Positions 53,199-63,595 of a DNA stretch of 64,000 nucleotides are shown one piece after another. The stretch's first letter is position 1, and every line of letters begins with the position of its first letter. Under the pieces are notes generated by a model, which was given only the letters and a program-made list of their open reading frames with translations, was not told the origin of the DNA and made no database searches. A program made the translations under genes and the position numbers. Source of the DNA: Thermodesulfovibrionales bacterium (lineage in GTDB: Bacteria > Nitrospirota > Thermodesulfovibrionia > Thermodesulfovibrionales > SM23-35); assembly GCA_963715195.1 (NCBI GenBank), contig CAVQRT010000007.1, positions 256,001 through 320,000 of the forward strand, read 5' to 3'.

Positions 53199-54131
53199 AT
53201 GAAAAAAGTCGGATTTATCTATGATGACATATTTCTGAAGCATGAGATGCCTCCCGGTCATCCGGAATCGCCGCAGAGGCTGATCGCAATCCTTGAAACC
53301 CTGAAAGCATCGGAATGCTGGGACCGGCTCATCCATATCAAACCGAGACGGGCAGGCGATGAAGACATCCTCGCTGTGCATACCGGCGATTACCTGAAGA
53401 GAATGCAAAACTTTACCGGCTTTTACGATGGAGATACCTATATCTCCGAACACACTTTTGAGGCTGCCCTGTTTGCTGCTGGAGCCCTTATTGAGGCAAT
53501 AGGCCGGTGCAAAAACGGTGAAATCGAAAGGGCATTCTGCGCCGTCCGCCCGCCCGGCCACCATGCCGAAGCAGATGCCGCGATGGGCTTCTGCATATTC
53601 AACAATATTGCGATCGGAGCCCGCTATGCCCAGAAGGCCGGATACCGGAAAGTCTTCATCGTGGACTTCGACGTTCATCACGGTAACGGAACACAGCACA
53701 TCTTTGAGGATGACGACTCGGTCTTCTATTTCAGCACCCACCAGTACCCTCATTATCCGGGAACCGGAAGTGATGGAGAGAGAGGAACGGGCAAAGGAGA
53801 AGGGTATACCTATAACATTCCCATGCCCTACGGCACGGGAGACAAGGATTTCTTTGTTGCCTATCGCGATATCCTGCCCCGACTTGTAAAAAACTTCCGT
53901 CCTGACATCATACTGGTATCAGCCGGTTATGACATCCTTCTTCAGGACCCCCTTTCCGGGTTTAAAGTGACGAGTGAAGGAATGCGGAGCATCATACGGG
54001 GAATCCTCCTGCGCTCTACTGCCACATACCTTCCGCCGCTTCCATATGTCTTTGCTCTCGAGGGAGGATACGACCTCAAAGCCCTCGGTGATTCAGTCCT
54101 TCAGACAATAAAAGAATTGCTTGAACCTTAG
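53199..54131 (+). CDS. Zn-dependent deacetylase (HDAC/AcuC-like)
   Basis: HPE, RPPGHHA, GFCIFNN, DFDVHHGNGT, LEGGY. Confidence 0.93.
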   Translation: MKKVGFIYDDIFLKHEMPPGHPESPQRLIAILETLKASECWDRLIHIKPRRAGDEDILAVHTGDYLKRMQNFTGFYDGDTYISEHTFEAALFAAGALIEAIGRCKNGEIERAFCAVRPPGHHAEADAAMGFCIFNNIAIGARYAQKAGYRKVFIVDFDVHHGNGTQHIFEDDDSVFYFSTHQYPHYPGTGSDGERGTGKGEGYTYNIPMPYGTGDKDFFVAYRDILPRLVKNFRPDIILVSAGYDILLQDPLSGFKVTSEGMRSIIRGILLRSTATYLPPLPYVFALEGGYDLKALGDSVLQTIKELLEP

Positions 54132-54198
54132 CTTCTTTCTGCCTTGTTTGCTTCAGGTTGATTTTTCCCTCATTGAAATAATATAATTCTTTTTAATT

Positions 54199-55521
54199 AT
54201 GAGGTATAAGAAGATAATCTTAAAGAAAAAGTTTATCTTTGTCACAGTTCTGTTAACTTTTCTTGTCACATTTTTCTTCTGCACGGACGTCTTCACTGAT
54301 GAAAAGAAAACCAAAGTTCTGGTCATAAGCATCAGCGGCGTCATCAACCCGGTCTCAGCAGAATTTATCGGGAAAAGTATCGGAAAAGCTCAGGAAAAAG
54401 AGGCTGAAGCTCTCGTGATCGAACTTGATACTCCGGGCGGTCTTGATACTTCGATGAGAAGCAGTGTGAAAGACATAATCGGAAGCGAGGTGCCTGTTGT
54501 CGTATTCGTTTCCCCAAGCGGAAGCAGGGCAGCCTCTGCCGGAGTTTTTCTGACGCTTGCCGCCCATATCGCGGCAATGGCTCCCGGCACCAATATCGGA
54601 GCCGCCCATCCCGTCGGCATCGGAGAGAAGATGGACAAAACCATGGCCGAGAAGGCTACAAATGATGCAGCGGCCTATATCAAATCGCTCGCCGAACGGC
54701 GCGGGAGAAATGCCCAATGGGCTGAGAATGCCGTCAGGAAAAGCATATCCGCGACGGAAAGCGAGGCGCTCAAAGAACATGTCATAGACCTTGTTACAAA
54801 GGATATTATGTCACTTCTCTCCGACATCGACGGCATGCACGTTCAGACTGCTTTTGGGGAAAAAAAGCTGAGAACAAAGAATGCGATGGTAATACGGGAG
54901 GAACTGGGGCTCAGACACAAAATTCTGAATCTGATTTCAGATCCGAACATTGCCTATGTTCTCATGCTCCTTGGCTTTTACGGCCTGTTCTTTGAACTCA
55001 CCAATCCGGGGTCTCTGTTCCCGGGCGTTATCGGGGGTATTTGCCTCATTCTCGCTTTCTATGCATTTCAGACTCTGCCGGTCAATTATGCCGGCCTTCT
55101 GTTGATCATCCTCGCGCTGATCCTCTTCATTCTCGAGATCAAGATCACATCCCACGGCATACTGACAATCGGGGGGATCATAGCAATGATTATCGGCTCA
55201 CTGATGCTGTTCGAATCTCCTGCTCCGTTTATGAAACTCTCCCTCACGCTCGTTCTGCCCGCTGTCCTCATCACCGCCCTCTTCTTTTCCGTGACCCTAG
55301 CTCTTGCATTTAAGGCACACCGGAGAAAACCGGTGACCGGGGCTGAGGGTCTCATCGGTGAACCCGGTATTGCCGATACAGATATCACCAGGGATGGCGG
55401 CATGGTTTTCCTGCATGGAGAGATATGGTCTGCATACTCGGAAGAACCGATATCAAAGGGAACCAGAATAACTGTTGACACGGTATCGGGGCTGAAAGTA
55501 AAGGTAAGGAAATCTCAGTGA
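54199..55521 (+). CDS. NfeD-type membrane-bound serine protease
   Basis: LDTPGG, AASAG, TNIGAA, C-terminal GEIWSA OB-fold; upstream of stomatin. Confidence 0.93.
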
Positions 55522-55576
55522 AGAGATCTTCAGCATATTTTCACACGATTCACCAAGCGTAAAAAAGGAGGTATCT

Positions 55577-56377
55577 ATGCCGTTAGCACCGTCTTTTATA
55601 AGTTCTCTCCTGATCGTATTCCTCGTTGTCTATTTTCTCTCGAGTGCGATAAAGATTCTAAAGGAATATGAGAGAGGTGTTGTATTCAGACTCGGAAGAA
55701 TTATCCCTGTCAAAGGGCCCGGATTAGTCATTATCTGGCCCATTATTGACAAACTGGTAAGAGTAAGCCTTCGAATCGTCACCATGGACGTTCCGTCACA
55801 GGACATTATAACGAAAGATAATATTACGGTAAAAGTCAACGCTGTAGTCTATTTCAGAGTTATGGCCCCGATAAAGGCAATAACAGAAGTTGAAGATTTT
55901 TATTTTGCAACATCACAGATAGCACAAACAACGCTCAGAAGCATACTCGGCCAGAGTCAGCTTGACGACCTTCTTACGAAAAGGGAAGATTTGAATGCCG
56001 AACTGCAGAAGGTCATAGACTTTCAGACAGAGCCATGGGGAATCAAAGTCACTGCAGTCGAAGTCAAGAATGTTGACCTGCCCGAAGAGATGCAGAGGGC
56101 AATAGCAAAACAGGCGGAGGCAGAGCGGGAAAGAAGGGCAAAGGTCATCCACGCTGAGGGAGAATTTCAGGCTTCTCAGAAACTTGCAGATGCAGCAAAC
56201 ATCATTGCGACAGCTCCGTCGGCATTGCAGCTCAGGTTTCTTCAAACACTCACCGAAATCGCAACAGAAAAGAATTCAACCATCATCTTTCCGGTGCCGA
56301 TAGACCTGTTGAGACCATTTCTGGAAAAACATGAAGTCAAGATTCCCGAGAGCACTCGCATACAGGGAACCTCATAA
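55577..56377 (+). CDS. Stomatin/SPFH family protein
   Basis: [34 protein letters not shown]. Confidence 0.95.
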
Positions 56378-56529
56378 AGGATATTCAGACGATGGCATAC
56401 ATCAGCTGGGAAACCATCCATGAACAAAAAATGGAAGGGGAGTAGAGAGTGTAGAGCATTCATAAAAGAATGGAACCCGGACGTTTTGCCCGTACACAGA
56501 ATATAGAAAAAATATGAGGGGGAGGACTC

Positions 56530-57810
56530 ATGGAACACGTATATATCGACCGGCCGTATGATATGAGGAGACATGAGCGGACGCCATCCGCACAACCGAT
56601 TCATTACCTGGTCAGCATGATCGAAGCAAAAAACCGGACGTGGCTCTCCTGTAAAGGCCAGCTTCTCGATATCAGTGAAGCAGGGATCTGTATTCAGACC
56701 AATCATCCGCTCTCTCCAGGCAACATTGTATGGTTTAATGGAACCTCAGAAGAAAAGGCAGGTTTTGTCCGATGGTGCCGCCGGCTTGACAGCACATACA
56801 AGATCGGCATTGAGCTGGATAAAACCCATATCAGGAAGCTCGACGAGGCGACCGATACATTCATGAAAACTCTGAAACAGATCGAGGAACAGTGCTCGGA
56901 TCATGCAGAAAATCCTGATGAGATATTACGCAAGGTCCAGCAAGCAGTCGACGGTGTCTGCATTGCCTGCGAGACTTTCGAGAAAGAGATCGGGGACAAG
57001 GACGTCATTCGTGATTCGCAGGTCAGGTTTCGCGAAAAAACCAATTCCATCCTCTCAAAAAGCTATTGCATAAACCGGGCCCGTACCTGGCCGCAGGGCT
57101 ACCAGGGCGATTACAAGACCCTTGAAGGCATATACCGGAACACCCCCCTTTCAGAGGGAATCGGCTACTATCTTGATCTGTGGGGCTTGAATGTTTCCCT
57201 TGCCGCAGCCGTGAGGAACAGGATAAAGAAACTCGAAACGCTCTTGCGGGATGAACTCCGGCAGAGGATGTTTCCGTCCGTCATGAACATCGCCTGCGGT
57301 TCGTGCAGGGAAGTTTTCGAATTGGCCACTGACATAGCAAAATCAGGCGCCAGATTTACCTGTATTGATCTGGACGACGATGCGCTCGCCTTTTCCGCAA
57401 ACCGTCTGTCGTTTACTCCCATCTCACCCCTGACGTCCGATCAGGTGGTGATGAGGAAATACAATGCGGTGAGGATGTTCGATCACGAGCTGAACCTGCA
57501 GGAATTCGGTATGCAGGATATCATTTACAGTGTTGGTTTTTTTGATTATCTGCCGACCGATTTTCTTATCAATCTGTTCAGGTCTCTGTATGCGCTTCTC
57601 AAACCGGGAGGAAAGCTCATTGCTTCTTTCAAAGATGTCTCCCGCTACCGGTATCAGGAATATCACTGGATATTTGATTGGGATGGCTTCCTCCAGCGGA
57701 CTGAAGAGGATTTCAGACGTATCCTGTCCGATGCAGGCATGCCCGATTCTTCGATTTACGAAACACGCGAAGAATCAGGGGTGATCGTCTTCTACATAGC
57801 TACGAAATAG
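56530..57810 (+). CDS. PilZ domain fused to class I SAM-dependent methyltransferase
   Basis: RRHER (RxxxR), DISEAG (DxSxxG), VRW..IGIEL; WPQGYQGDY; NIACGSCRE motif I; IDLD; DIIYSVGFFDYL; LKPGG. Confidence 0.85.
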   Translation: MEHVYIDRPYDMRRHERTPSAQPIHYLVSMIEAKNRTWLSCKGQLLDISEAGICIQTNHPLSPGNIVWFNGTSEEKAGFVRWCRRLDSTYKIGIELDKTHIRKLDEATDTFMKTLKQIEEQCSDHAENPDEILRKVQQAVDGVCIACETFEKEIGDKDVIRDSQVRFREKTNSILSKSYCINRARTWPQGYQGDYKTLEGIYRNTPLSEGIGYYLDLWGLNVSLAAAVRNRIKKLETLLRDELRQRMFPSVMNIACGSCREVFELATDIAKSGARFTCIDLDDDALAFSANRLSFTPISPLTSDQVVMRKYNAVRMFDHELNLQEFGMQDIIYSVGFFDYLPTDFLINLFRSLYALLKPGGKLIASFKDVSRYRYQEYHWIFDWDGFLQRTEEDFRRILSDAGMPDSSIYETREESGVIVFYIATK

Positions 57811-57823
57811 ACCGGAATGCACT

Positions 57824-59056
57824 ATGGGTAAGAACATCGTTATCACCGGCATCGGCATCGTATCACCCGTTGGAACGGGAAGAAACAATTACTGGGATGC
57901 CATCTTTCAGGGAAAATCCGGGTTCAGGCCGATAACCGTCTTTGATGCTTCATCGTTCACGGTATCTCTTGCCGGTGAGATACCTGACTTTGATCCTATT
58001 ACTTTTCTCGGCAAAAAAGGATTGCGGGAACTCGACCGGAGCACAAGACTTCTTACTGTTGCGGCAAAGCTCGCCCTCGAAGATAGCACGCTCGTGATAA
58101 CAGACGAGAACGCTCCTTTTACCGGAGTCGCAATCGGAACCACATTCGGAAGCCTCCATAGTATCTTTCAGTTCGACCGTGTAGGCCTCACCGATGGTCC
58201 CCGCTTGGTTAACCCGTCACACTTCCCGAACACGGTTATCAATTCTCCTGCAAGCAGGGTTTCTATACGCTTCGGATTAAAAGGATTTAACACCACCATA
58301 TCGACAGGATTCTGTGCAGGCATCGACGCTGTTTCCTATGCATCTGATTTTATCAGATTAAACAGGGCTGACATCGTTTTGACCGGTGGTGTCGAAGAAT
58401 TGTGTGAGGAGACCTTTATGGGTTTTTCCAGGCTCGGATATCTGTCGGGGTCGGATCATTCAGACCCACTCTGCTGCCCTTTTGATGGTCGAAGAAACGG
58501 AACAATACTTTCCGAAGGTGCCGGAGTTATTGTCCTTGAAGATGAAGATCATGCCGTAAAGAGAGGTGTTTCTATTCTAGCAAAAATAGCAGGCTACGGA
58601 AATGCCTTTGATCCGTCAGCAGACAAGGGTTTCAGCCATACAGGGTCAGGATTAAAGAAGGCGATTGCATATGCTCTGAAAGAATCCTCTCTCACCACTC
58701 GCGATATTCAGTATATCTCTGCCAGTGCCAATTCAACACCAGGCTTAGACAGGATGGAAACAGAGATAATTAAAGCCGTGTTTGGTGAACGGGCTTTCTC
58801 CATCCCGGTTAGTTCTATCAAATCAATGGTCGGTGAGACGTTCTCCGCCTCCGGTGCATTCGCTGTAGCTGCAGCAGTCGGTGCGATACAGCATGGGATT
58901 ATTCCACCGACGGTAAATTACCGTGAAAAAGATCCCTCATGCGACCTCGATTACGTTCCAAACAAGGCAAGGGCATCAGAGATAAAACACGTTCTTGTCA
59001 TATCGTCTGATCCGTATGGAAACAACTCTGCAATTATTGTAGGGAAATATGAGTAA
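57824..59056 (+). CDS. Non-catalytic ketosynthase homolog (chain-length-factor-like)
   Basis: FabF fold, but STGFCAG, ISASANST and KSMVGET replace STAC, AHGTxT and KSMxGH. Confidence 0.85.
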   Translation: MGKNIVITGIGIVSPVGTGRNNYWDAIFQGKSGFRPITVFDASSFTVSLAGEIPDFDPITFLGKKGLRELDRSTRLLTVAAKLALEDSTLVITDENAPFTGVAIGTTFGSLHSIFQFDRVGLTDGPRLVNPSHFPNTVINSPASRVSIRFGLKGFNTTISTGFCAGIDAVSYASDFIRLNRADIVLTGGVEELCEETFMGFSRLGYLSGSDHSDPLCCPFDGRRNGTILSEGAGVIVLEDEDHAVKRGVSILAKIAGYGNAFDPSADKGFSHTGSGLKKAIAYALKESSLTTRDIQYISASANSTPGLDRMETEIIKAVFGERAFSIPVSSIKSMVGETFSASGAFAVAAAVGAIQHGIIPPTVNYREKDPSCDLDYVPNKARASEIKHVLVISSDPYGNNSAIIVGKYE

Positions 59057-59099
59057 ATAGTGTTAAGGATTTTTAATACAGGCAGTTCACGGAGAGGTA

Positions 59100-59537
59100 A
59101 TGATGGAACTTGATTTTGAACAGATTAAAAAAGTCATACCGCAGCGGTTTCCTTTCATCATGATCGACAGAGTCATCAATGTGAATCCGGGGAAAGAAGC
59201 CACAGCAATAAAAAATGTATCAGGAAATGACATATTTTTTCTCGGCCATTTCCCTGAGAAAGCGATCATGCCGGGCGTTGCCCTGATCGAGGCAATGGCC
59301 CAGACAGCCATTATTCTGTTCGGTGCAGGAGAAAATGCAGCCTCAGGAGATACTCTCTATTTTCTCGGTTCGGTCAAGGCACGCTTTTATCATCCGGTAG
59401 TGCCGGGTGACTGCATGACAATCAAAGCGGTCAACGTAAAATCCCTGCCCTCTGGTGCATATGTGACAGCCGAAGCAACGGTCGATGACAGGAAAGTATC
59501 AGAGGCAGAACTTGTCTTCAGTGTGAAAAATGAATAA
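59100..59537 (+). CDS. 3-hydroxyacyl-ACP dehydratase (FabZ-like)
   Basis: PQRFPF..IDRV, FLGHFP...MPGVALIEAMAQ, V.PGD. Confidence 0.93.
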   Translation: MMELDFEQIKKVIPQRFPFIMIDRVINVNPGKEATAIKNVSGNDIFFLGHFPEKAIMPGVALIEAMAQTAIILFGAGENAASGDTLYFLGSVKARFYHPVVPGDCMTIKAVNVKSLPSGAYVTAEATVDDRKVSEAELVFSVKNE

Positions 59538-60744
59538 GCGTGTTGTCATAACGGGTCTGGGTGCTGTTTCCTCAATCGGTATCGGATGGGAATCATTCTG
59601 GGACAGTCTTGTAGCAGGCAGGTCGGGTATCAGCGATGTTACCTCATTTGATACATCCGGCCATTTTACCCACAAGGGCGGCGAGATCAAAATCTTCATT
59701 CCCGATGAGTTTATACCTCCGGACAAGCTGAACATACTCAGCCGTTCTTCCCAGTTTGCTGTTGCGGCCGCACACCTTGCGGTCCGCGATGCACACCTCT
59801 CACCCGACGAGCTCTCAGCTATTACTGCTGGCATCTGCATCGGTACGACCATGGGTTCGGTGCAGACTTCAGAGATTATCAACCAGATGATCGTCCTGCA
59901 GGGCAAAACTGATTTCAGCAATGATCTGATTTGCCAGGTGCCGACACACTCAACTCCAGCAGCGGTTGCACGGGAGTTCGGCATTACAGGGCCCAATCTG
60001 ATGTTCTCCACCGCCTGTTCGGCGGGCAATTATGCAATCGGATACGGTTTAGACCTCATTCGGCTTGGGAAGACTGATGTTATTCTTGCGGGAGGATCGG
60101 ATCCTTTTTCAAAGGTGGCTTTTACCGGATTCAACCAGTTCGGTGCAGTGGCTCCTGAAAAATGTCAGCCCTTTGATAAAAATCGCAAAGGCATGATGGT
60201 TGCAGAAGGTGCGGGCATGCTTATCATCGAATCTCTTGATCATGCACTCACGCGCAATGCCCCCATATATGCCGAAATCGCAGGGTACGGGTTGAGCTGC
60301 GATGCACACCATATGACGCTCCCCTCTGTTGAAGGCGTCTCACGCTGCATGATGCAGGCTTTGCGGGAAACCAGAATCACGACCGAACAGGTTGATTACA
60401 TCTGTGCCCACGGCACGGGCACCCCCGCAAACGACAGGGCAGAGTGTGCGGCGATACGGAATGTTTTCGGCTCCCGTACAAAGGACGTGCCGGTCAGTTC
60501 AATAAAATCCATGATCGGTCATACCATGGGAGCGGCATCTGCACTCGAAGCTATCTCATGTGCCCTCACGGTAAAAAACAACATAATCCCGCCAACAATA
60601 AATTATGAGACGCCTGATCCGGAATGCGATATCGATTGCGTTCCAAATCAGGCACGCGGGCATGAAGTGAATATTGCCTTGAATAATTCCTATGCGTTCG
60701 GAGGAAATAATGCATCACTGATATTGCGGAAATATATCCCATGA
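59530..60744 (+). CDS. Beta-ketoacyl-ACP synthase (FabF-like, active)
   Basis: STACSAG, AHGTGT, KSMIGHT, FGGNN; Cys-His-His triad intact. Confidence 0.94.
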   Translation: MNKRVVITGLGAVSSIGIGWESFWDSLVAGRSGISDVTSFDTSGHFTHKGGEIKIFIPDEFIPPDKLNILSRSSQFAVAAAHLAVRDAHLSPDELSAITAGICIGTTMGSVQTSEIINQMIVLQGKTDFSNDLICQVPTHSTPAAVAREFGITGPNLMFSTACSAGNYAIGYGLDLIRLGKTDVILAGGSDPFSKVAFTGFNQFGAVAPEKCQPFDKNRKGMMVAEGAGMLIIESLDHALTRNAPIYAEIAGYGLSCDAHHMTLPSVEGVSRCMMQALRETRITTEQVDYICAHGTGTPANDRAECAAIRNVFGSRTKDVPVSSIKSMIGHTMGAASALEAISCALTVKNNIIPPTINYETPDPECDIDCVPNQARGHEVNIALNNSYAFGGNNASLILRKYIP

Positions 60745-60759
60745 AGGAGGCCGTGAAAA

Positions 60760-61029
60760 ATGAAAGAAAACACCCTCGAAAAGGAAATCATCTCTATTAT
60801 TGCAGACGTTTCAGGATTTGATCCCGGGGAGATTACGCCAGAAGCCAAATTGGCCGATGATCTCGAAATTGATTCAATTAAAGCAATCGAGATCGTTGTT
60901 GCGATCGAAAAGAAATACAAGGTTTCGGTTCGGGATGAAGATGTCCCGAAGATTACCACTGTCAGCGAGACCGTAGCAGTCGTCCACAAGCTCCTGAATC
61001 AGGAACTCGCAACGAATGTCAGGAACTGA
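60760..61029 (+). CDS. Acyl carrier protein
   Basis: DLEIDSIKAIEIV phosphopantetheine Ser; acidic, 89 aa. Confidence 0.93.
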   Translation: MKENTLEKEIISIIADVSGFDPGEITPEAKLADDLEIDSIKAIEIVVAIEKKYKVSVRDEDVPKITTVSETVAVVHKLLNQELATNVRN

Positions 61030-62452
61030 TCGCCCCTCATATGATGCCGTTATTATTGGTTCAGGGATAAGCGGGCTGATATGCGGAAGCTACCTTGCAA
61101 AGGCCGGACTGAAGGTGCTCATTGCAGAGCAGCATCATCAGCCGGGGGGATACTGTACATCGTTTGTGAGAAAGGGCATCACCTTTGATGCTGCTGCACA
61201 TTCGTTTGGCGGGTACAGGGAGAACGGTATCATCCGGAAGGTTTTCAATGATTTCCGCCTGAATGACAACGTGGCCGTTACAAGGTATGACCCAACGGAC
61301 GTAGTCGTATCACCTGACTCTGAAATCTCCCTGTGGTCTGATCTCGAAAGAACGATTGCAGATCTCGGATCCTCATTTCCGGACGAACAGGATAATTTCA
61401 GGAAATTTGCGAGCTTTTTGCTGAAGCCCGATCCTCAGTCGTTTGCCGGCATGCGGCGCTGGACCTTCAAAGACCTGCTCGACCACTATTTTCGGAACGA
61501 TAAACTCAAATCCATGCTCTCTTTCCCGATTTTCGGAAATGGTGCCCTCCCCCCTGCTCGCATGTCTGCTTTCATCGGTGCCAAGATATTCACTGAATTT
61601 ATTCTCGATGGCGGATATTACCCTGAAGGCGGAATGCAGAGGCTTTCAAATGCCCTCGCAGAGAGTTTTCAGCATTTCGGCGGGGAATTGTTATTGTCCT
61701 GTCCTGTCAGCAAAATTATCATAAAAAATGGTGGGGCAGCCGGTATAGTCATCGGAGGCAAGATGCCCGTCAGTGCAGGGTCGGTTGTCTCGAATTGCGA
61801 CGCAAGACAGACATTTCTCAGAATGATCGGCAAAAAACACCTTCCCCTTGAGTTCATGAACAAGCTTAATCGGATGCAGCCGTCACTCTCCATGTTCGTC
61901 CTCTATCTTGGTCTGGATCAGGAATTTGAGAACACACTGCATGCCGGTTCGAATATCTGGTATCTCTCTCATTATGATCTGGAGAAAATGTACCGGTCCG
62001 CTGCACGTCGCTCACCGTCCTCGATTGATGAGTGCATGGTGCGCATCTCTCCTGACCGAAAAAGCCTGCTGGCCTTTACAAATACCTCTTTCAGAAACAG
62101 GGCATTTTGGTCCGACAGCAAATCAAAATTTATCGATGGGTTCATAGCACGACTCTCACGCATCATGCCGGGTATTTCACAGCACATTCTTTACAAGGAC
62201 GCAGCAACCCCTTCCACTATGGACCGTTACACGTCAAATTATCGCGGAGCTGCATACGGATGGGAGAGCACCACCGCCCAGCTTGCCGATCCTGATTTCA
62301 GGAGACCTTCTTTCATTCGTCACTTATACCTGACCGGTCATTGGTCGACACAAGGTCTCGGCATTCCGGGTGTTGCATATCTTGGATATGATACCGCGAC
62401 ATCAGTTCTTAAAAGAAGAAAAGCCTCTCTTTCACAATCTTCTCCTGAATAA
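61016..62452 (+). CDS. FAD-dependent oxidoreductase, phytoene desaturase/all-trans-retinol reductase family
   Basis: IIGSGISGL, EQHHQPGG, YYPEGG, ATP.T..RYT....GAAYG, LYLTGHW. Confidence 0.9.
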   Translation: MSGTDRPSYDAVIIGSGISGLICGSYLAKAGLKVLIAEQHHQPGGYCTSFVRKGITFDAAAHSFGGYRENGIIRKVFNDFRLNDNVAVTRYDPTDVVVSPDSEISLWSDLERTIADLGSSFPDEQDNFRKFASFLLKPDPQSFAGMRRWTFKDLLDHYFRNDKLKSMLSFPIFGNGALPPARMSAFIGAKIFTEFILDGGYYPEGGMQRLSNALAESFQHFGGELLLSCPVSKIIIKNGGAAGIVIGGKMPVSAGSVVSNCDARQTFLRMIGKKHLPLEFMNKLNRMQPSLSMFVLYLGLDQEFENTLHAGSNIWYLSHYDLEKMYRSAARRSPSSIDECMVRISPDRKSLLAFTNTSFRNRAFWSDSKSKFIDGFIARLSRIMPGISQHILYKDAATPSTMDRYTSNYRGAAYGWESTTAQLADPDFRRPSFIRHLYLTGHWSTQGLGIPGVAYLGYDTATSVLKRRKASLSQSSPE

Positions 62453-63595
62453 GGCAAAAAACTGCTCCTTCACCCGCTCCAACAGGGGACGATTACTCCA
62501 TGCTTCAAAGTTTATCTGCACTGAGTGCTTTAAATCTTCTTTAAATATTTCTATCATCTGCCTCCCGAATTCCTGATCGAAAATACCTACATTCCCCTCG
62601 TCGTTTTTTCTGAGAGACTGGAAATCCAGATTTGCCGATCCGATGACACTCCAGACGCCGTCAAATACTGCTGTTTTTGCGTGGAGAATCTCTCCCTGAT
62701 ACGTATACACTTCAACCCCTGCTTGCAAGAGCTTCGTAAAAAATGCCCTCCCAACATAATGGGCTGCTGCAACATCCGACTTGCCTGGGAGAAGCAGTTT
62801 GACATCAACGCCCCGGGATTCAGCTTCCTCGAGCACATGGAGCATCCTCCTGCTTGGCGCAAAGTATGCCGTTGTCAGGTAGATACATGTTCGTGCCTGA
62901 TGAATACTGTAATAGAGCAGTTTCCTCATCTTACGGCGACTTTTTGCAGAATTTACAAATATCGGAAGTACCGGTAACCCAGCTTCAACTGGTTCTGTTG
63001 GTTTATCAAAACTGATTGACGGACCCTTCCATACGTTCCAGCTCTTTTTGAATATTTCGAGAAGAGTTTTTGCTATGGGACCTTCAAGAAATATCCCGGT
63101 ATCGCGCCACCCTTTTCCGTGTCTAAACCTGCGGTATCCCCTGTACTCATTTGCGATATTCAGCCCACCGGTAAAGGCCAAAACACCGTCAATGATTATG
63201 AGTTTTTTGTGATCTCTGTGTACATAGTGAAAAGGGTCCATCCACTTGAACGGATGAGAAGCCCTTATCTGCACCCCTACATGCCTCAGCTCTCTCCAGA
63301 ATTCTTTAGGGGTTCCGAAAGACCCAAAATGATCGTAGAGGATATAGACCTTTACTCCCTTATTGGCTTTTCTTTTCAGTATTGCTGCGAGTTCTTTACC
63401 GGTTTCATCATTCCTGAAGATATAAAATTCGAGGCATATCAACTCCTTCGATTTTTCTATAGCATCAAATATTTTTCGGAATGAATCCTTTCCTTTCCAC
63501 AAAAGGGTTACCCTGTTTCCGTCGGTAAATGGGATGCCGTATTCTTGTGCTATATTGTCAGTACTGAATGCGGGATTGTTCTGTTCAAAGTCCAT
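62432..63595 (-). CDS. Cardiolipin synthase-like phospholipase D (ClsB type)
   Basis: Two HKD motifs: HKKLIIID and HAKTAVFD; GSANLD. Confidence 0.92.
   Translation of the reverse strand: MDFEQNNPAFSTDNIAQEYGIPFTDGNRVTLLWKGKDSFRKIFDAIEKSKELICLEFYIFRNDETGKELAAILKRKANKGVKVYILYDHFGSFGTPKEFWRELRHVGVQIRASHPFKWMDPFHYVHRDHKKLIIIDGVLAFTGGLNIANEYRGYRRFRHGKGWRDTGIFLEGPIAKTLLEIFKKSWNVWKGPSISFDKPTEPVEAGLPVLPIFVNSAKSRRKMRKLLYYSIHQARTCIYLTTAYFAPSRRMLHVLEEAESRGVDVKLLLPGKSDVAAAHYVGRAFFTKLLQAGVEVYTYQGEILHAKTAVFDGVWSVIGSANLDFQSLRKNDEGNVGIFDQEFGRQMIEIFKEDLKHSVQINFEAWSNRPLLERVKEQFFALFRRRL

Follow-up and report, generated by a model that had tools for sequence, protein, structure and literature searches.

The six-gene operon described here, from an uncultured anaerobic Nitrospirota bacterium, probably forms, with a hybrid sensor kinase encoded elsewhere in the genome, a make-and-sense system of the PhcB/PhcS kind, in which a short acyl methyl ester would be produced on an assembly line of its own. 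Anatomy, homologies, synteny and co-variation of the genes are the direct basis of this reading. A preliminary description of the 64,000-nucleotide stretch analysed (the window) had left the product as either a special lipid or a fatty-acid methyl ester signal; homology of the methyltransferase to PhcB and the evidence for a PhcS-like receptor support the latter. A literature search, in which subscription journals were sparsely covered, found no papers on the operon.

The six open reading frames are co-oriented and all intact in the ORF calls of the window (Table 1), with intergenic gaps, from the methyltransferase to the CrtI-like gene, of 13, 43, -8, 15, and -14 bp. Their tight spacing and the domains first assigned to them were confirmed by the ORFs, Pfam and catalytic residues, as was the lack of a ketoreductase, radical SAM, ligase or cyclase in the stretch bounded by the SPFH gene upstream and the PLD gene that converges on the operon (ORFs, Pfam). 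The arrangement is not a chance one, because the same gene order was seen again in 29 fetched loci, and the methyltransferase is, as had been proposed, co-conserved with the cassette across related loci. No signal of horizontal transfer was found in base composition (gene GC 0.45-0.51, window 0.474). Scans for promoters (17 promoter-like sites vs. 11.2 ± 3.7 in shuffled sequence) and terminators (9 vs. 7.8 ± 3.2) were uninformative. The tentative Shine-Dalgarno/mini-ORF pattern is present in 5/13 family loci and 3% of shuffles, having been framed after sight of the same sequences. In two public runs, one RNA contig spans the junction of the methyltransferase and dead ketosynthase genes only (57667-57859), the contigs being short (longest listed 435 bases). 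The PLD gene adjoins only some of the same-genus loci.

Table 1. Features of the operon and its surroundings (window positions, except for the kinase)
Feature	Coordinates	Strand	Evidence
Shine-Dalgarno-like site and start-stop mini-ORF, 5′ of methyltransferase (tentative)	56438..56454	+	Pattern in relatives
PilZ-fused PhcB-like class I SAM methyltransferase, 426 aa, putative methyl-ester synthase/chain release	56530..57810	+	Pfam PilZ and Methyltransf_12
PilZ motif segment of methyltransferase	56566..56685	+	Both motifs in 118/120 homologs listed
Dead ketosynthase KS1, chain-length-factor-like subunit, 410 aa	57824..59056	+	Pfam KS; triad lost
FabZ dehydratase, putatively of amxFabZ type	59100..59537	+	Pfam FabA-like; NCBIfam FabZ above cut-off; H50/E64 kept
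Active-type ketosynthase KS2, 404 aa	59530..60744	+	Pfam KS; C163, H294, H331
Dedicated acyl carrier protein (ACP), 89 aa	60760..61029	+	Pfam PP-binding; D38-S39
CrtI/CrtISO-like FAD oxidoreductase, 478 aa, candidate for double-bond tailoring	61016..62452	+	Pfam Amino_oxidase
PLD-family, cardiolipin-synthase-like gene, convergent	62432..63595	-	Pfam PLDc_2; site where relatives have sensor kinase
PhcS-like hybrid kinase, 716 aa, outside window	contig C6 77156-79306	-	Membrane sensor-PAS-HisKA-HATPase-REC

The methyltransferase is laid out as a PilZ domain (residues 13-103), a helical region (100-245) and a Rossmann core (246-426). Its PilZ domain scores 25.3 bits with Pfam (cut-off 22.5) and has intact RRHER (13-17) and DISEAG (47-52) motifs, and a model of the protein (pLDDT 89.6) places six strands within residues 23-96, followed by a helix at 100-123. 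Judged by its motifs, the domain is a predicted c-di-GMP receptor of the canonical kind defined in 10.1101/814665. Binding of c-di-GMP is very likely, and control of methyltransferase activity by this messenger may reasonably be expected, with less confidence. The intact motifs agree with the original headline of a c-di-GMP-gated enzyme, but PilZ is missing from 26 of the 45 related loci, which weakens that headline and makes such control an add-on. One locus (L066) carries PilZ with the variant motifs RKHVR and NSSETG.

Profile and pairwise comparisons identify the methyltransferase as a distant relative of PhcB, the methyl-ester signal synthase of the Ralstonia type. The reference was a 468 aa Paraburkholderia protein (L107), not Ralstonia PhcB itself, named PhcB-type by synteny and R22 (PMC6989110); identity to it is 25% over 209 aa (E-value 1e-12). 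An HMM of 120 methyltransferase homologs matched this protein with an E-value of 6e-18, the next among 6,496 genome ORFs being 0.29, and 26 of the 120 homologs listed bear the JGI name “3-hydroxypalmitic acid methyl ester biosynthesis protein.” A fold search named neither a carboxyl-methylating relative nor a characterised close one; its best match was the uncharacterised 3ocj (Z 22.9, rmsd 3.2, 249 aligned), followed by C-, O-, and N-methyltransferases. Two type I PKS proteins end in the same methyltransferase domain.

The six-gene set is incomplete, its relatives ending in a sensor kinase which is the steadiest partner of the methyltransferase. With loci below 40% identity or 230 aligned residues omitted from the counts, 43 of 45 related loci have the kinase gene downstream of the methyltransferase in the same orientation (contig ends cut off the other two), the two genes being direct neighbors within 150 bp in 13 loci, while 14/43 loci have methyltransferase and sensor without the cassette. 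A close methyltransferase is present in 75 genomes, 72 of which have the sensor and three of which lack it; among 401 genomes, 279 have neither and 24 have the sensor but yielded no methyltransferase in the search. Methyltransferases that carry a cassette group in a single clade (32 rows, SH-aLRT 98) amid two-gene pairs, and it is likely that the cassette was inserted into a methyltransferase-sensor pair, as read from a quick, midpoint-rooted tree with long outgroup branches.

In the source genome the kinase is full length, single copy and unlinked to the operon, sharing 52% identity over 713 aa with the in-operon kinase of locus L026. Five hydrophobic stretches were scored in its sensor domain, placing it in the membrane. 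The sensor HMM matched the PhcS-type membrane domain with an E-value of 3e-16 (next genome ORF 0.078) and a score of 61.5 bits, the best of 1,000 shuffles reaching 13.7; by this profile evidence the two domains are homologous. The gene is followed by a convergent fabH, and the kinase occupies this fabH-plsX site in two further genomes (G024, G286) as well; G003/G414 has the same two junctions as the source genome, with proteins 69-86% identical. This cognate kinase, the most constant partner, lay outside the stretch covered by the preliminary description.

In KS1 the catalytic triad is replaced (Cys by F163, His by S301 and His by E338), while that of KS2 (C163/H294/H331) is kept in 37/37 rows. 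Their best solved matches are 9s5h_C for KS1 (387 bits, next 293) and 9s5h_B for KS2 (507 bits, next 356 for 6kxd), and the tunnel residues F134/T137/V138 of KS1 are unchanged in 49/49 loci rows. These features fit a predicted KS/chain-length-factor (CLF) heterodimer. FabZ has 8ayd/7qv0 as its best solved matches and Ile71 in its tunnel, where canonical FabZ has Gly; Ile is found in 28/28 rows at this position (amxFabZ position 69). PMC10139942 gives the amxFabZ signature as Ile at 69, a hydrophobic residue at 115 and Ser/Thr at 96. Position 115 is Leu in 28/28 rows; at position 96 the operon's FabZ has Tyr and most relatives have Leu, as against Lys/Arg in canonical FabZ. The ACP has its Asp-Ser in 37/37 rows and best matches mycobacterial AcpM (59 bits; amxACP-type chains 47-48), a second, housekeeping ACP being separate on contig C31. 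Solved matches, triads and tunnel residues thus bear out the earlier KS/CLF reading and link to anammox Cluster I. The description of the set as minimal, with no ketoreductase, holds for the operon here, but FabG lies within 18/29 cassettes of related loci. A cassette FabG was not found in the source genome with the L026 query, and the absent ketoreductase is a trait of its own family of locus.

The CrtI-like enzyme falls far short of the cut-offs of three carotenoid models (122-128 bits) and is proposed to set the type of signal by double-bond tailoring. Trees were compared for 22 loci with all six parts, and later for 20 with the near twins L052 and L054 dropped. The flavoenzyme and sensor domain trees are correlated (partial r 0.57, permutation p 0.0005, 20 loci), and the sensor-domain tree has 6/9 supported splits in common with the flavoenzyme as against 0/9 with the methyltransferase, dead KS (KSd), active KS (KSa), PAS or kinase core. 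This is as expected of matched signal and receptor types; the flavoenzyme also adjoins the sensor, so that joint transfer by proximity can account for the common tree, and kin are not independent.

The same core is found in Omnitrophota with different chain-release enzymes and 7TM kinases. Among 13 complete cassettes outside the clade, the methyltransferase slot is occupied by a thioester reductase (three), an acyl-ACP-reductase-like protein (three), a LuxD-like thioesterase-methyltransferase fusion (one), a PhcB-like methyltransferase (one) or a third KS (five), and a kinase gene belongs to the same gene run in 12, the remaining one being cut. Seven of 16 Omnitrophota loci consist of KSd-FabG-FabZ only, without adjoining KSa, ACP or kinase. 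Close relatives of the dead KS occur in 58/401 Nitrospirota and 30/201 Omnitrophota genomes searched. The Omnitrophota KSd proteins (339-498 bits) are mostly nearer KS1 than is 9s5h_C, so anammox provides the closest solved relative rather than a demonstrated sister group; no anammox-like representative was recognised among 150 KS hits.

In the proposed mechanism, the KS and dead KS heterodimer would initiate and lengthen a short chain carried by the dedicated ACP, as suggested by the C6-C8 preference of the solved anammox pair. Housekeeping FabG would reduce the chain, being proposed because this family of locus has no cassette FabG, and FabZ would dehydrate it. The flavoenzyme may then reduce, shift or add a double bond, fixing the signal type, before the PhcB-like methyltransferase would free the chain as a methyl ester, a role suggested by PhcB and by the position that the gene takes up. 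The kinase on contig C6, for which homology and co-inheritance are observed, would bind and read this ester in the membrane, and c-di-GMP probably tunes the ester-release step through PilZ in the source lineage.

Several observations count against the make-and-sense reading, namely the 25% identity to a PhcB-type stand-in and the fold search without a carboxyl-methylating relative, the unlinked synthase and sensor of the source genome together with the sensor-only (24/401) and methyltransferase-only (3/75) genomes, the anammox heterodimer, which stalls at acetoacetyl-ACP in vitro (preprint), and the reduced Omnitrophota loci. The low identity would allow an altered chemistry, and with C- and O-methyltransferases among the nearest characterised folds and a sensor that sits in the membrane, the pairing could be the same with a chain methylated on carbon or hydroxyl and retained in the producer's membrane, where it would serve the kinase as a private cue. 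This is unlikely, as sister cassettes have chain-release enzymes at the position of the methyltransferase, no second release enzyme was found in the operon (Pfam), and orphan sensors in 24 genomes suit a shared, diffusible cue.

A special membrane-lipid pathway of the ladderane-precursor or polyene type, with the kinase merely a regulator, is improbable. The KS pair and FabZ do have their best solved matches in anammox Cluster I, the PLD-family gene adjoins the operon and 1/29 cassettes (L101) has a B12 radical SAM gene; however, the protein of the latter scores only 55 bits on TIGR04072, and no ladderane-type radical SAM of this family is above cut-off in the source genome (best 158 vs. 360), which weakens the lipid branch first put forward. 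The operon also has no acyltransferase, the PLD gene is not a constant neighbor even in the genus, methyltransferase and sensor occur together without the cassette, and it is the sensing domain and not the kinase core which tracks the flavoenzyme. Decay or repurposing of an operon decoupled from its sensor is still less probable: the kinase is on a different contig, cassette FabG was not found and the genome has a contamination figure of 6.57%, but all six frames and the catalytic motifs are intact, the kinase is complete and single copy, and its site and both junctions recur in related genomes.

If the make-and-sense reading is true, anaerobic Nitrospirota gain a cell-cell signalling system, Phc-type methyl-ester signalling extends far past Burkholderiaceae, and there is a case of a signal built on a KS/CLF line of its own, with specificity groups of enzyme and receptor. 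A broader and rather speculative possibility is that the Cluster I-type KS/dead-KS/FabZ/ACP core is a widespread modular lipid-signal synthase, its interchangeable release (methyl ester, alcohol, aldehyde, free acid, condensation) and tailoring enzymes being matched to swappable sensing domains, giving chemical “dialects” among uncultured anaerobes, with c-di-GMP gating output here. In that case the anammox cluster would count as one derived member of the group, and the core alone would not be evidence for ladderane chemistry. The operon family also touches ladderane biosynthesis, as PMC10139942 calls Cluster I exclusive to anammox bacteria, yet its dead KS has close relatives in Nitrospirota and Omnitrophota. 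Ladderane-like clusters had already been noted in non-anammox phyla and are now given a testable role.

Aryl polyene clusters have a starter-loading ligase, ketoreductase and transfer enzymes beside their KS pair, none of which is present between 55.5 and 63.6 kb of the window. Like the highly reducing type II PKS of ishigamide (Iga11/Iga12), represented by the second-best KS2 match 6kxd, the operon has an active KS with a dead partner, an ACP and a dehydratase, but it lacks a ligase or amide-forming enzyme and belongs to a methyltransferase/sensor pair. Anammox Cluster I (kustE3603-3608) encodes amxACP, amxFabZ, amxFabF2, amxFabFmut, a phytoene-dehydrogenase-like protein and a B12 radical SAM. 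Shared with it are the tunnel Ile of amxFabZ, the F-x-x-T-V tunnel residues of amxFabFmut (roles in the amxFabF2/amxFabFmut pair are from a preprint), the dead-triad partner and the phytoene-dehydrogenase-like gene. The operon differs in lacking the radical SAM, in gene order, in an ACP nearer AcpM and in the joined PhcB-like enzyme and kinase.

The phcBSRQ system of Ralstonia, Cupriavidus and Paraburkholderia, which in the genome set of PMC5995829 was intact in Cupriavidus and Ralstonia alone, has methyl 3-hydroxymyristate/-palmitate as signals, PhcB as methyltransferase and PhcS as kinase. Both systems have a homologous methyltransferase and membrane sensor domain, with the synthase first and the sensor downstream. 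Unlike phcBSRQ, the operon family has a KS/CLF-FabZ-ACP-flavoenzyme cassette between these genes and a PAS-containing hybrid kinase with its own REC; the operon has no separate PhcR/PhcQ, nor does a conserved receiver pair follow the kinase in close loci. The N-terminus of the methyltransferase is a canonical PilZ domain, whereas the PilZ HMM has no match in that of the PhcB-type protein. An ester other than methyl 3-hydroxymyristate/-palmitate is predicted from the presence of FabZ and the flavoenzyme and from the short-chain signatures of the tunnel.

The six-gene operon reported in the preliminary description was found to be intact and co-oriented, and the residues of its dead and active KS were verified. 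Its genes are spaced by 13, 43, -8, 15 and -14 bp and are assigned by Pfam, in order, to PilZ plus methyltransferase, KS, FabA-like hotdog (FabZ), KS, ACP and a flavin amine-oxidase-family protein (the CrtI-like flavoenzyme). Phe, Ser and Glu occupy the three catalytic positions of the first KS, and the second retains Cys163, His294 and His331. The window corresponds to G000:C7:256001-320000. Each gene is present as one copy in the source genome (G000), the housekeeping fabG-acp-fabF of which lies on contig C31. The operon's closest loci are found in Nitrospirota, several of them Thermodesulfovibrionales. An NfeD-SPFH pair sits ahead of it throughout the family and is absent there in most other families. 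A Shine-Dalgarno-like site with mini-ORF precedes the methyltransferase gene in 5 of 13 family loci versus 3% of shuffles, a pattern picked post hoc from the same sequences. Small genes of the DUF559, PD-(D/E)XK and 23S-IVP families are interposed among cassette genes in two fetched loci (L062, L078).

Coordinates of the operon, its surroundings and related features (G, genome; C, contig; L, fetched locus)
Feature	Location	Remarks
Histone-deacetylase-family, NfeD and SPFH genes	window 53199-56377	Upstream of operon; Pfam
Shine-Dalgarno-like site, then start-stop or 2-3 codon mini-ORF	window 56438-56454	About 80 nt before methyltransferase reference point
Six-gene operon	window 56530-62452	Six ORFs, by ORF reading
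Dead KS residue 164, Cys	window 58313-58315	One residue past lost catalytic position; invariant, 49/49 rows
Second fabF	G000:C7:414242-415495	Intact
Housekeeping fabF	G000:C31:98836-100081	Read in two frames; frameshift, real or assembly error
Sensor kinase	G000:C6:77156-79306	Whole, 716 aa, single copy; convergent with plsX-fabH
Distant methyltransferase relative	L083:3378-4844	cNMP-binding domain where PilZ would be
1124-aa fusion	L084:1849-6342	Pyruvate-dehydrogenase-like E1, lipoyl and FabH domains; distant PhcB-like methyltransferase directly after
Type I PKS, KS-ACP-methyltransferase	L090:9694-12831	Enterobacter plasmid
Type I PKS, KS-AT-KR-DH-methyltransferase	L094:6316-13860	Genome G210
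B12-binding radical SAM gene	L101:3386-4696	Between ACP and flavoenzyme, one cassette; 55 bits on TIGR04072 (cut-off 360)
Release slot: thioester-reductase-like protein	L111, L118, L119	Score below NCBIfam cut-off
Release slot: acyl-ACP-reductase-like protein	L120, L121, L123	Score below NCBIfam cut-off
Release slot: LuxD-like thioesterase fused to methyltransferase	L124	Score below NCBIfam cut-off
Release slot: PhcB-like methyltransferase	L126	Score below NCBIfam cut-off
Release slot: third KS	L108, L109, L110, L113, L125	Score below NCBIfam cut-off

The name 'extracellular factor (EF) 3-hydroxypalmitic acid methyl ester biosynthesis protein' (JGI) is carried by 26 of the 120 methyltransferase homologues listed, most others being unnamed. 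The PhcB-type reference was a Paraburkholderia graminis plasmid operon (L107) with a 468 aa methyltransferase, a 445 aa kinase and two receiver proteins; its methyltransferase has Arg22, which is reported as conserved in PhcB of Ralstonia, Cupriavidus and Paraburkholderia (PMC6989110). The window methyltransferase shares 25% identity with this protein across 209 aa (E 1e-12), and an HMM built from the 120 homologues finds it at E 6e-18, against 0.29 for the best other of the genome's 6,496 ORFs. By sequence, the enzyme is thus recognisable as a PhcB relative. In its AlphaFold model (pLDDT 89.6), a PilZ barrel and a helical region are joined to a class I Rossmann core, with the uncharacterised 3ocj as top structural match (Z 22.9, rmsd 3.2, 249 aligned).

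Both PilZ motifs, as defined in 10.1101/814665, are kept in 118/120 homologues, the domain averaging 54% identity. A GG[DE]EF motif occurs in 14 ORFs of G000, which also gives 26 PilZ matches. The domain probably binds c-di-GMP, and gating of the methyltransferase by this messenger is plausible. PilZ is a lineage add-on, as it is missing in 26 of 45 loci, among them every one of the 13 cassette rows in family f25, and is replaced by a cNMP domain in a distant relative (L083).

The methyltransferase has its constant partner in a sensor kinase. In the 45 fetched loci whose methyltransferase shows at least 40% identity, a membrane-sensor/PAS/hybrid kinase lies downstream on the same strand in 43, the other two being cut by contig ends; in 13 of the 45 its start is no more than 150 bp away, without intervening fatty-acid genes. 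Across 401 Nitrospirota genomes, in which kin are not independent, the sensor is present in 72 of the 75 with a close methyltransferase, 24 have a sensor and no methyltransferase match (possibly orphan receptors) and 279 have neither. The sensor domain matches the PhcS-type domain at 26% over 188 aa, and its HMM scores there at E 3e-16, with 0.078 for the next ORF of the genome, and at 61.5 bits versus 13.7 for the best of 1,000 shuffles, so that it can be classed, on sequence, as PhcS-like. The kinase gene of G000, convergent with plsX-fabH, is apart from the operon, a split also seen in G003/G414; the same fabH site holds ACP-CrtI-kinase in G024 and the kinase in G286. In two assemblies of this lineage the operon has therefore been split, with the break falling after the flavoenzyme and ahead of the kinase. 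In G001 and G002 (L066, L068) the in-operon kinase, of 592-597 aa, stops short of the receiver domain and abuts a convergent PLD-family gene.

Within 22 loci, the pairwise identity of the sensor domain tracks that of the flavoenzyme, with a partial r of 0.64 (permutation p 0.0005, such tests on related loci overstating significance; r = 0.57 with two near twins dropped). It does not track that of the methyltransferase, either KS, the ACP or the core of the kinase, for which partial r lies between -0.10 and 0.13. With the twins dropped, the flavoenzyme tree shares six of the sensor's nine supported splits, and the methyltransferase, KS (dead or active), PAS and kinase trees share none; the methyltransferase, PAS and kinase trees follow host family. 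The exchange border falls within the kinase gene, at the membrane domain/PAS boundary. Sensor and flavoenzyme could have been transmitted together through proximity alone. The shared tree is also what one would expect to see were the ligand read by the sensor domain determined by the flavoenzyme. In three loci where a second methyltransferase replaces the flavoenzyme, the sensors are 51-63% identical mutually and 37-48% to those of flavoenzyme-bearing family mates.

Of the 43 loci with a downstream kinase, 29 have the dead KS, all 29 with active KS and ACP, joined by flavoenzyme in 24, FabZ in 22 and FabG in 18; no cassette FabG was found in G000, the only match being the housekeeping FabG (45%). 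In a quick tree the cassette-bearing methyltransferases group as a single clade of 32 rows with an SH-aLRT of 98, and the two-gene pairs lie alongside it. Outside this clade, 20 dead-KS loci were fetched (4 from Nitrospirota and 16 of 30 Omnitrophota matches), 13 of which have the full cassette and seven only KSd-FabG-FabZ. A kinase gene lies in the same run in 12 of the 13, with HisKA_7TM in 11 of these (L109 is cut). In these related cassettes (L108-L127) the release enzyme is swapped and the kinases are of the HisKA_7TM-GAF type. A FadL-type transporter lies upstream of the cassette in L119, and that of L108 ends in a REC-HD protein. L112, L114-L117, L122, L127 and L038 have dead KS and FabG (and FabZ) without adjacent active KS or ACP, riboflavin genes adjoining the set in L112 and L038. 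A PhcB-like domain is also the last domain of two type I PKS proteins, as a candidate methyl-ester release domain, and PhcB is thought, according to PMC4549310, to act on 3-hydroxyacyl-ACP. Together, the swapped enzymes, the PKS-terminal domains and this proposed substrate support chain release as a methyl ester by the methyltransferase, which sits in the release-enzyme slot.

With moderate confidence, we regard operon and kinase as a PhcB/PhcS-like make-and-sense system for a short acyl methyl ester. Among solved structures, its dead KS is closest to 9s5h_C (387 bits, next 293), its active KS to 9s5h_B (507, next 356) and its FabZ to 8ayd/7qv0 (118 and 114, next unrelated 107); from chain pairing and residue pattern we infer these entries to be anammox proteins. 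In the anammox 'ladderane' candidate Cluster I, amxFabF2 pairs with amxFabFmut in a heterodimer of KS/chain-length-factor type that yields acetoacetyl-ACP and crosslinks best with C8 probes (10.64898/2026.05.19.726425). Its tunnel residues Phe135/Thr138/Val139 (same source) correspond to F134/T137/V138 of the dead KS, invariant in 49/49 rows, and the tunnel Ile of amxFabZ, described in PMC10139942, is present in 28/28 rows. Given these matches and the C8 preference, a short product of about C6-C12 would be likeliest. Anammox bacteria are not alone in having the dead-KS type, which is matched at E 1e-100 or better in 58/401 Nitrospirota and 30/201 Omnitrophota genomes; ladderane-like clusters without an assigned role have already been described from non-anammox phyla (PMC2649909; 10.1101/2022.12.20.521206). 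No published description of this operon was found in the literature searched. The operon shares the Cluster I core but is not a Cluster I member, since the B12 radical SAM enzyme is absent from it by Pfam and from the genome above the TIGR04072 cut-off, and it likewise falls outside the PhcB/PhcS system in having no PhcR/PhcQ and in possessing a private cassette.
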